From the IMG/VR virus record IMGVR_UViG_2617270976_000012, positions 1 to 48,151 of that record: DNA of 48,151 bases; one strand, 5' to 3'. Numbering within the stretch: position 1 is the stretch's first letter; each line of letters opens with the position of its first letter. Below are positions 11,599 through 16,637 of this stretch, in pieces. The notes below the pieces were generated by a model. That model was not told the origin of the DNA. It did not search any database and saw only the letters and a list, made by a program, of their open reading frames with translations. The DNA comes from a virus. Its lineage: Duplodnaviria > Heunggongvirae > Uroviricota > Caudoviricetes. The position numbers and the translations under genes were made by a program.

Positions 11599-11939
11599 CC
11601 ACTTTTACCAGAGAGCAGTTAATAGCTCACGCAGAGGAGACTATTGAAGCACAGAGACTGTGCATACCGGGCACAATCGACCATGACATCATCCGCACAT
11701 ATAAGATGGATATTGCTGTTCTGGAAATCGCACTGGCATCGCTGGCAGCAGAGCCAGCCGGTAAATTGCATGAATACAAACCAGTGGGACATCAGCGTCT
11801 GGTCGACGAGTTAACCATGCTGGTAAAGCAGTTAACCTGGCAACTGAGGAAAACGAAGCCGGACTGTAAATTGCCGGGTAAGGCGATGGACTACCTGAAG
11901 CGAAACGGACTGATAAGCGCAGAGGATGTTTTACGATGA
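11595..11939 (+). CDS. Hypothetical nin-region protein (paralog of the gene at 10656-11081)
   Basis: 114 aa; N-terminal similarity to the upstream paralog. Confidence 0.5.
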
Positions 11940-12230
11940 CCTGGCCTGAGGCATTCACAACGGTAGGGATCGCAATGGCGGTGGCGCTGGTGGTGTATTC
12001 GATTTGTCGCTGGGGATAAAAACGATTTGCGGGGAAAGGATAGTTAAGTAGAATTGCTGCGGGTGCTTGAGGCTATCTGTCTCAGGCATGAATACCAAAA
12101 GGCAGATAGAGAAAAGCCCCAGTTAACATTACGCGTCCTGCAAGACGCTTAACATTAATCTGAGGCTCAATCTATGAACGGCAAATCTAGGTTAGCCTCT
12201 TACGTGCCGAAAGGCAAGGAGAAGCAGGCT

Positions 12231-12386
12231 ATGAAGCAGCAAAAGGCGATGTTAATCGCCCTGATCGTCATCTGTTTAACCGTCATAGTGACGGCACTGG
12301 TAACGAGGAAAGACCTCTGCGAGGTACGAATCCGAACCGGCCAGACGGAGGTCGCTGTCTTCACAGTTTACGAACCTGAGGAGTAA
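12231..12386 (+). CDS. hokD: Hok/Gef-family type I toxin (HokD/RelF-like)
   Basis: MKQQKAMLIALIVICLTVIVTALVTRKDLCEVRIRTGQTEVAVFTVYEPEE matches Hok/RelF as recalled; in-frame upstream extension resembles a mok-type leader; GC hairpin at 12393-12415. Confidence 0.75.
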   Translation: MKQQKAMLIALIVICLTVIVTALVTRKDLCEVRIRTGQTEVAVFTVYEPEE

Positions 12387-12553
12387 GAGACCCGGCGAGG
12401 GAGAAATCCCTCGCCACCTCTGATGTGTCAGGCATCCTCAACGCACCCGCACGTAACCCGCTTCGGCGGGTTTTGTTTTTTCCTGGCATTCTGGTTTACA
12501 ATTCGCACGCCAGCCTGAACAACTGGCACCTGCTGCGCCAGCAGAGACAACCG

Positions 12554-12832
12554 ATGGCGCACGATACCAAATTACACAATTCTGATGATTCTGCCGTCTT
12601 TGCCAGCAGGCACGGGCGGCGTTCCCGCACTTTCAAATCTGACTGGTTCCAGCATCCCCCATGCACTGAAGAACAGGCCGAGTGGCTAATTCAGTGCTAC
12701 CGCAGACACGGATACGAGATTAAGAAAGCCCTCAGCCTCGATTATCGTCACTGGATAATCTCCGTCAGGCTTCCTTACTCCGAACGCTCACCGCGTCCGT
12801 CCCGCACATTCCAGCAACGCATCTGGAGGTAA
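12554..12832 (+). CDS. Hypothetical protein (position equivalent to rem of Qin)
   Basis: ORF between hok and the DUF968 gene; start uncertain (ATG 12554 chosen; track ORF begins 12425). Confidence 0.3.
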   Translation: MAHDTKLHNSDDSAVFASRHGRRSRTFKSDWFQHPPCTEEQAEWLIQCYRRHGYEIKKALSLDYRHWIISVRLPYSERSPRPSRTFQQRIWR

Positions 12833-16387: not shown

Positions 16388-16463
16388 GGCCCTTTAGCTC
16401 AGTGGTGAGAGCGAGCGACTCATAATCGCCAGGTCGCTGGTTCAAATCCAGCAAGGGCCACCA
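16388..16463 (+). tRNA. ileZ: tRNA-Ile2 (anticodon CAU, ileX/ileZ-like)
   Basis: 76-nt cloverleaf folded by hand: acceptor GGCCCTT/AAGGGCC, anticodon loop CTCATAA, TTCAAAT T-loop, 3' CCA; close to E. coli ileX as recalled. Confidence 0.8.
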
Positions 16464-16470
16464 TCACATA

Positions 16471-16547
16471 CCGCCATTAGCTCATCAGGAAAGAGCGCCA
16501 GCCTTCGAAGCTGGTTGCGCGGAGTTCGGATCCCCGAAGGCGGTTCA
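16471..16547 (+). tRNA. argN: tRNA-Arg-like (anticodon UCG), imperfect stems, possibly degenerate
   Basis: Perfect anticodon arm CCAGC-CTTCGAA-GCTGG; D-arm TAGCTCATCAGG...GAGC; one mismatch each in T-stem and acceptor stem; 3' end TCA not CCA. Confidence 0.45.
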
Positions 16548-16560
16548 TTATCTGTATCCT

Positions 16561-16637
16561 GCGTTGTTAGCTCAGCCGGACAGAGCAATTGCCTTCTAAG
16601 CAATCGGTCACTGGTTCGAATCCAGTACAACGCGCCA
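16561..16637 (+). tRNA. argO: tRNA-Arg (anticodon UCU, argU/argO-like)
   Basis: Acceptor GCGTTGT/ACAACGC, anticodon loop CTTCTAA, T-loop TTCGAAT, 3' GCCA. Confidence 0.8.

Follow-up and report, generated by a model that had tools for sequence, protein, structure and literature searches.

The DNA analysed here, a stretch of 48,151 nucleotides that we refer to as the window, carries, among the rightward early genes of a lambdoid prophage of Escherichia coli and ahead of DUF968, RusA and Q, a toxin gene of the Hok family together with an overlapping mok reading frame, a predicted antisense Sok RNA gene on the opposite strand and a series of candidate RNA folding elements that extend from a putative hok promoter to an intrinsic terminator (Table 1). 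To delimit these elements, we extracted the corresponding region from 129 related loci in genomes and viral contigs and used the 81 distinct sequences among them for per-position conservation, which sets the limits of the module at about 12042-12481; on the right-hand side, homology ends in most relatives at 12473-12482. A preliminary description of this DNA had assigned a Hok/Sok-type locus to 11936-12420. All the features that it listed lie where it put them, but the span was mis-set: on the left it takes in an unrelated small gene, a 27-codon open reading frame (ORF) considered below, and on the right it misses both the fbi box and the terminator-like site.

Table 1 Features of the hok/mok/sok locus, its upstream neighbour and the other toxic functions of the prophage, with positions as counted in the window.
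Feature	Position	Strand	Description
27-codon gene	11936-12019	+	Small hydrophobic protein; GAGG 10 nt upstream
Putative hok promoter −10	12049-12054	+	TAGAAT, read from the sequence
tac box	12061-12072	+	GGGUGCUUGAGG; translational activator at the 5' end of hok mRNA, predicted pairing with fbi
Leader 5' hairpin	12073-12109	+	CUAUCUGUC ... GGCAGAUAG
ucb-like anti-SD box	12114-12120	+	AAGCCCC; nearly invariant
Predicted Sok RNA gene	12182 to 12112	-	About 71 nt, inferred ends
Nested hairpin	12133-12148	+	GCGUC-CUGCAA-GACGC; 16 nt inserted into the sokT/Sok stem as compared to the Rfam consensus
mok Shine-Dalgarno (SD)	12162-12166	+	GAGGC; GAGG (12162-12165) 8 nt 5' of the ATG at 12174
SD-dcb loop	12167-12194	+	28 nt; mok AUG and first codons, complement of the Sok 5' tail
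mok reading frame	12174-12386	+	70 codons, in frame with hok
Putative Sok promoter	12217 to 12189	-	−35 TTGCCT 12217-12212, 17-nt spacer, −10 TAACCT 12194-12189
hok toxin gene	12231-12386	+	51 aa, MKQQKAMLIALIVICLTVIVTALVTRKDLCEVRIRTGQTEVAVFTVYEPEE; SD GGAG at 12218-12221
3' GC hairpin	12394-12415	+	9-bp stem 12394-12402/12407-12415, GAAA loop
fbi (fold-back inhibitory) box	12436-12448	+	CCUCAACGCACCC, complement of tac; nearly invariant
Intrinsic terminator of hok mRNA	12455-12481	+	7-bp stem, UUCG loop, T-run
DUF1482/YdfD-family ORF	3134-3322	-	Pfam
DicB	3319-3507	-	Pfam
ParE toxin	4838-5125	-	Pfam; with a PaaA2-type antitoxin
YdaT	6111-6536	+	Pfam

The assignment of the toxin gene to the Hok family, already made in the preliminary description, is borne out by profile searches: the ORF matches the Pfam family HOK_GEF (PF01848) with an E value of 6.4e-22 and 77 bits (cut-off 22), and PHROG 251, 'MokW-like host killing', with an E value of 2.8e-32, while its scores against the NCBIfam Hok subfamily models fall below the cut-off (45 bits versus 73). 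The exact protein sequence is annotated as HokD in many genomes and is 40% identical to Hok of plasmid R1. The in-frame upstream extension, which had been likened to a mok leader, is equally real: the mok ATG lies about 57 nt upstream of the hok start, mok overlaps hok, and the shared frame makes the mok product an N-terminally extended Hok. With MokW of the Shiga-toxin phage 933W, in which mokW is an annotated gene, this product shares 89% identity, and public databases list its exact 70-residue sequence under the name 'Hok/Gef family protein'. Nearly all aligned loci retain the mok ATG, one allele carrying a 3-nt indel that keeps the frame, and the mok SD pairs in the consensus structure with a dcb-like GCCUC at 12195-12199 through pairs that are invariant.

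Upstream of hok, the leader matches the Rfam family RF01794 ('sok') with 112.4 bits and an E value of 7e-25, against a gathering score of 59. An Rfam search for Sok or hok leader elements had been proposed as a check, and it does recognize the leader, although not as the name of the family suggests: the full model (positions 1-157) aligns to 12061-12236 on the plus strand, in the sense of hok, and ends at the hok AUG, so that it describes the hok mRNA leader and not Sok, an RNA complementary to a part of this leader. A search of the literature on RF01794 and CssrC returned nothing relevant. The model begins at 12061, which is also about where, 7 nt past the putative −10 hexamer, we infer that hok transcription starts. 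The positions of this hexamer are conserved in at least 80-90% of the 81 distinct relatives; the accompanying −35, TTGCGG (12027-12032), is weak, poor and non-conserved.

The RNA that would run from this start to the terminator is predicted to fold back on itself, with a stability that, like the Rfam score of the leader, far exceeds chance expectation. In the MFE fold of 12061-12481 (421 nt, z = −7.2), its two ends close in a tac/fbi helix of 12 pairs with one bulged C, of which the outer 6 pairs are retained in 51-53 of 53 diverse loci. As the tac/fbi pairs are invariant, covariation is silent about them and speaks neither for nor against the helix; homology to 933W stops just past fbi. Behind tac, the 5' hairpin contains a helix (helix 3) of 9 pairs, two of which have changed on both sides, with AU in 37, GU in 6, UA in 4 and GC in 2 loci at column pair 21/53. 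In the same fold, GCCC at 12115-12118 is joined to the GAGGC region from which the sokT stem-loop rises, and the ucb-like box, an assignment modelled on R1 (PMC9841398), is predicted to mask the mok SD as long as the mRNA is of full length. Loci at a greater distance, namely L015-L022, L044-L048 and L106, do not have the nested hairpin within the sokT/Sok stem.

At the other end of the transcript, the strong GC hairpin that had been noted 3' of hok is present with its 9-bp stem, and two of its pairs show compensatory changes (GC:24, GU:15, AU:13 at one and GC:35, AU:14 at the other). Its role is another matter. We rejected it as a terminator and consider it likely to be the protective terminal stem of a 3'-processed, translatable hok mRNA, because a terminator scan of 11850-12600 found no T-run after it, because it lies upstream of fbi, and because mutations that weaken the corresponding stem of R1 lead to loss of the truncated, translatable hok mRNA, presumably to 3' exonucleases (PMC9841398). 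Its distance from the stop codon is the same as that of the R1 terminal stem. The sole terminator-like site within 11850-12600 is the one that ends the module.

That the leader should also encode an antisense, Sok-like RNA was a further expectation of the preliminary description, and comparison with 933W, where sokW is annotated, points the same way. We mapped the sokW misc_RNA of 933W (L001 1676-1746, offset 10436) onto the window to set the ends of the predicted Sok RNA, which folds at −33.3 kcal/mol (z = −6.1) into a free 5' tail of about 8-14 nt and a long stem-loop, followed by the U-rich tail GGGGCUUUUCU. The stretch 12189-12230, which includes the −35, spacer and −10 of the putative Sok promoter, is identical to that of 933W, and the promoter is conserved across the relatives. 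Promoter prediction, which had likewise been suggested as a check, was of no help here: a sigma-70 consensus scan of 11850-12600 called no site on either strand, missing the hok promoter and leaving the Sok promoter below threshold, the latter because its −10 has 3 of 6 consensus bases. As the scan was blank on both strands, the promoters were placed by homology, and it is through homology rather than consensus that we call the putative Sok promoter. Its TAACCT −10 is the element that Takada et al. (2021) replaced in their 'pro-less' sokW mutant with primers YO-421/422 (PMC8621323); in Sakai prophage 5 (Sp5), this promoter-less mutant unmasked the toxicity of HokW, and sokW supplied in trans gave partial relief (PMC8621323). 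Since 6 of the first 10 bases of the window Sok 5' tail differ from sokW, these results extend to the behaviour of the window Sok by inference and not by direct transfer.

Comparative data support the RNA structure. In an alignment (A2) of 53 loci with 60-97% identity, RNAalifold retains the tac/fbi closing helix, the 5' hairpin, the SD/dcb stem and the 3' hairpin, and 98.2% of the cells in the consensus structure are paired. Changes on both sides were found at 16 pairs, as compared to 6.8 ± 1.7 in shuffled and 2-8 in slid controls, a comparison that is biased in favour of the tested structure with respect to the slid controls, as this structure was derived from the same alignment. The 5' hairpin (AU/GU/UA/GC) and the 3' hairpin show such compensatory changes most clearly. 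When we folded the truncated RNA 12061-12424, the 'metastable' 5' hairpin was recovered with the mok SD still paired, and the tac/ucb stem expected of the truncated RNA was not obtained, so that thermodynamic folding does not recover the activation step.

With these lines of evidence, we conclude that 12042-12481 is very probably an intact hok/mok/sok type I toxin–antitoxin module of the hokW/hokD subgroup. One could suppose instead that it is a decayed and silent relic from which Hok is never made, as for several chromosomal hok loci of E. coli K-12, in which an IS element interrupts the locus or the leader is gone. Some relatives are indeed degraded, such as L005 with its damaged tac box, and four others (L006, L038, L107 and L111) are homologous just from about 12217 on and are without tac, mok and sok; both window promoters are, in addition, weak by consensus. 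We nevertheless regard a relic as very improbable. In the window sequence and its ORFs, no IS element or stop codon disrupts any element of the module, the reading frames are open and every element agrees with the majority consensus drawn from 53-81 distinct relatives; the stretch with the Sok promoter is that of 933W, and the sokW promoter of Sp5, from the same family, is functional; and the compensatory changes that preserve the structure speak for continuing selection on the RNA.

The module is thus a member of a well-characterized family, with identical copies in public genomes and a close relative that has been studied, and its novelty is low: the locus is an ordinary, already known type I cassette, closely related to the experimentally studied hokW-sokW of Shiga-toxin phages. 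The gain is one of annotation, as the RefSeq records of identical prophages mark just the 51-residue 'hokD' ORF; mok, Sok, tac/fbi and the terminator, which are missing from those records, are now placed to base level.

The most variable part of this otherwise conserved module is the loop between the mok SD and the dcb-like element, which has the highest internal entropy, about 0.8 bit compared to 0.1-0.3 elsewhere (81 sequences). We counted 43 distinct loop sequences in 116 loci; the allele of the window, CTCAATCTATGAACGGCAAATCTAGGTTA, is found in 16 of them, and 'TCTACACACG' represents another class of Sok alleles besides those of the window and 933W. Across these alleles, including the one with the 3-nt indel, the mok ATG and its frame are preserved. 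In E. coli, 13,253 related places were found, with a median of 2 and a maximum of 11 per genome, which would give a reason for allele-specific recognition by Sok, and co-resident loci carried different loop alleles in all three genomes checked. The loop may be a hypervariable 'address' cassette in a module that is 95-100% conserved, so that co-resident modules are orthogonal or the Sok of one prophage disarms the Hok of a rival; we hold this to be conceivable but more doubtful than not, and a rough estimate from allele counts makes different alleles at co-resident loci the chance expectation, which gives no evidence for orthogonality. If diversifying selection or recombination does maintain the loops, co-resident hok/sok modules would be mutually orthogonal, and the hypervariable loop could account for the coexistence of many hok/sok copies free of cross-talk; alternatively, the Sok of one prophage could act against the Hok of a competing one.

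The small hydrophobic ORF that the preliminary description had included in the locus is present and does overlap the preceding stop, its ATG sharing ATGA with the TGA of a 114-residue ORF, but it reads as an independent gene that is translationally coupled to the preceding one and lies outside hok/sok. We collected 20 distinct intact alleles, whose variation falls mostly at third codon positions, with a pooled pN/pS of 0.32 in frame versus 1.0 and 1.7 in the other frames; the value of 0.32 comes from non-independent pairwise counts and is indicative. A tblastn search against phages found the 27-residue peptide in 90 phage records. In BP-4795, PhiR12_4 and TH18, its gene follows a DUF551, Ea22 or EaA gene, again with an ATGA overlap, and no hok comes after it. 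Searches against Pfam, PHROGs and NCBIfam gave no family match, and the exact sequence is listed in GenBank as 'bacteriophage protein' (in a few submissions) or 'hypothetical protein'. A cluster that grouped the peptide with 121-residue DUF551 proteins proved to be an artefact of partial entries, as the peptide is absent from the sequences of these proteins.

Could this ORF still belong functionally to the toxin locus, either by encoding a second membrane toxin or by supplying a leader peptide that regulates hok? It immediately precedes the module, its peptide is hydrophobic like type I toxins, and the homology to 933W starts exactly at its ATG, which is why it had looked like a part of the module. 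The distribution of the two argues strongly the other way: most relatives share the module just from about 12014-12053 rightward, with other sequence in place of the ORF, and in BP-4795, PhiR12_4 and TH18 the ORF is found without a hok module. As the ORF also precedes both the hok promoter and the mRNA 5' end, we judge a part in the toxin locus extremely improbable. The ORF is best described as a gene for a single-helix membrane peptide without a family at the end of an ea22/DUF551 array, a gene that is conserved in this position in lambdoid arrays and omitted by RefSeq annotation.

Drawing on hok/sok of plasmid R1 and hokW-sokW of Sp5, the conserved anatomy of the module suggests how it would work. 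A weak constitutive promoter (−10 TAGAAT) would give rise to a hok mRNA of about 420 nt from near 12061, in which tac-fbi pairing and the sequestered mok SD would keep both ribosomes and Sok from binding as long as the RNA is of full length. Slow 3' trimming would take off the terminator and fbi and halt at the GC hairpin, whereupon the leader would refold and expose the mok SD and AUG in the hypervariable loop. In-frame translation of mok would then open the hok start, and the 51-residue Hok would enter the inner membrane and kill or lyse the cell. A stronger antisense promoter would meanwhile supply the unstable Sok, whose 5' tail would form a duplex with the loop, block mok translation and lead to cleavage by RNase III, such that Hok would be produced once the supply of Sok ends.

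For a prophage, the likely pay-off would be quicker lysis and phage release after induction, as in Sp5, and prophage retention would be a second possible one. The flanking genes in the window are all co-directional with hok, so rightward transcription would meet the Sok promoter head-on, and early transcription after induction is a plausible cause of Sok loss. The hokW-sokW of Sp5, which Takada et al. assigned to this same gene pair, provides the experimental counterpart: HokW is toxic and is neutralized by sokW from its own promoter, in a manner partly dependent on RNase III and Hfq; upon treatment with mitomycin C, sokW is depleted and HokW is induced, about 1 h before the endolysin; and when the locus is deleted, growth arrest comes later and phage release falls by half (PMC8621323). 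R1 offers a parallel demonstration of Hok toxicity, neutralization by Sok and an involvement of RNase III (PMC9841398).

The same system could have its main role in host defence by abortive infection, where a lytic phage stops transcription, Sok decays and Hok kills the cell. As general background, prophages commonly carry defence cargo, and hok/sok of R1 reportedly excludes phage T4, as described by Pecota and Wood in 1996, both of which would fit such a role. We still think defence unlikely to be the main role, as the sole direct data for the subgroup favour help for the phage itself, in lysis and in the release of its progeny (PMC8621323); the sequence itself holds nothing that discriminates between the roles.

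The module is accompanied by further toxic functions in the same prophage. The preliminary description had named ParE, DicB and YdfD next to Hok, and Pfam confirms all three, the last as a YdfD-family ORF. The prophage thus appears, from these matches, to stack growth-arresting functions, namely Hok, ParE with PaaA2, DicB, the YdfD-family protein and YdaT. The 27-codon ORF is not a fifth toxic function of the locus.

Copies of the locus are widespread. The 621 bases at 11900-12520 are 100% identical to prophages in several E. coli chromosomes, in which the toxin is annotated as hokD, and the whole window is a mosaic relative of one such E. coli prophage; collinearity of the whole window with NZ_CP042892 was considered and rejected, the two being mosaic. 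The relatives H1 and H34 carry about 660 bp more, for which an IS element inside the locus was considered; for H1 it was dismissed, as the addition there is an extra gene inserted downstream of hok.

Identity to 933W is about 92% over 11936-12450, and the 933W record (Plunkett 1999, AF125520) lists a mokW of 70 residues in frame with hokW, hokW itself and the antisense RNA sokW, so that both the system and its in-frame mok had been recorded before. The window shares with hokW of 933W and Sp5 the order of tac, ucb, mok SD, in-frame 70-codon mok, hok, 3' hairpin and fbi, as well as the lambdoid prophage host and the identical Sok promoter stretch. It differs from them in the first mok codons, matched by the differences in the Sok 5' tail, and from 933W in the C terminus of Hok (FTVYEPEE compared to FVDYESEK), in a canonical terminator that 933W does not have at that place and in its flanking genes, which in the window include DUF968, RusA and Q downstream of the locus.

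As a protein, the toxin hardly differs from that of hokD (relF) in the Qin prophage of K-12, and PGAP calls the identical ORF hokD. Whereas the K-12 hokD is said, following Pedersen and Gerdes (1999), to lie behind relBE without a tac/mok/sok leader, the leader in the window is complete. Separately, we observe that the four relatives with homology from about 12217 on look like the truncated form of K-12 hokD. On the E. coli chromosome, hokC (gef)/mokC/sokC also has an in-frame mok, with a MokC of 69 residues that ends in HokC. The loci L015-L022, about 74% identical to the window, are probably of this hokC type; they have all boxes in common with the window and differ from it in that they are without the nested hairpin, have another terminator and are chromosomal, not prophage-borne.

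With hok/sok (parB) of R1, the window shares the tac/fbi fold-back, the 3' terminal stem and, by prediction, the antisense promoter within the leader, in a layout with closely similar distances: counted from the 5' end, the mok AUG lies at +114 compared to +116 in R1, the hok AUG at +171 compared to +174 and the terminal stem at about +334-355 compared to about +345-358 (PMC9841398). The window sokT/Sok stem has, relative to R1, the additional 16-nt nested hairpin. Whereas in R1 the mok frame differs from that of hok, with 58 nt between the starts, the 57 nt in the window keep the two in frame, so that translation of mok yields an extended Hok. Finally, the carrier is a prophage and not a plasmid, which makes lysis and phage release, rather than plasmid post-segregational killing, the likely pay-off of the module.

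The 27-aa hydrophobic open reading frame (ORF) upstream of hok is a conserved gene in its own right. Its intact alleles (n = 20) give a pN/pS of 0.32, and it is joined by an ATGA overlap to the preceding ea22/DUF551-type gene. It is contained in 90 phage records, some of which have no hok; RefSeq copies leave it without annotation, and we found no protein family for it. Separately, one related locus (L103) is a decayed relative, with a stop at codon 3 of this small ORF.

Within the hok leader, the loop that complements the Sok 5' tail is hypervariable although the modules are otherwise near-identical, with 43 variants across 116 loci, throughout which the mok ATG and frame are kept. This loop may set the specificity of Sok. 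The leader also carries a nested hairpin that is inserted with respect to the Rfam consensus for sok (RF01794); hok loci that are more distantly related (L015-L022, L044-L048 and L106) do not have it. Further decayed relatives are L005, which has a damaged tac box, the 5' box of the hok mRNA, and four loci (L006, L038, L107 and L111) that are homologous only from around window position 12217 onward and are therefore leaderless, in which they resemble K-12 hokD.

Features located in the window
Feature	Position	Strand	Remark
ParE toxin ORF and PaaA2-type antitoxin ORF	4838-5316	-	two ORFs overlapping by 1 base
ORF upstream of the ParE/PaaA2 pair	5344-5745	-	helix-turn-helix-like sequence
27-aa hydrophobic ORF	11936-12019	+	independent, conserved small gene
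16-nt nested hairpin, GCGUC-CUGCAA-GACGC	12133-12148	+	within the sokT/Sok stem
Loop between mok SD and dcb box	12167-12194	+	complement of Sok 5' tail
Three consecutive tRNA genes	16388-16634	+	corresponding position in a related prophage annotated Ile, Arg, Arg
sRNA STnc100	17475-17684	+	strong Rfam match, 145.6 bits (gathering score 47)

Elsewhere in the window, the STnc100 match lies downstream of the tRNA trio, whose counterparts in the related prophage sit with the Q/methyltransferase region on one side and lysis genes on the other. In the related prophage (L134 8632-9765), a gene annotated as 'porin OmpC' lies inside the tail gene cluster, in a 99%-identical stretch; its putative position in the window, approximately 38550-39680 (+), is placed by mapping from that prophage. 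The layout of the ParE/PaaA2 pair and its upstream ORF resembles the paaR2-paaA2-parE2 modules, each of three genes, that O157 prophages carry.

At the 3' end of the hok mRNA, a sub-threshold Rfam match to isrK, an Hfq-binding sRNA of Salmonella carried by prophages, covers 12395-12476 (+); its 27.8 bits (E = 6e-4) fall short of the gathering score, which is 50. The match spans the hok 3' hairpin, the fbi box and the terminator, and probably reflects just two hairpins and a U-run. Compared with the window, homology in phage 933W (L001) ends directly after the fbi box, and 933W (L001 2014-2049) lacks the canonical hok mRNA terminator hairpin that is present here at 12455-12481.
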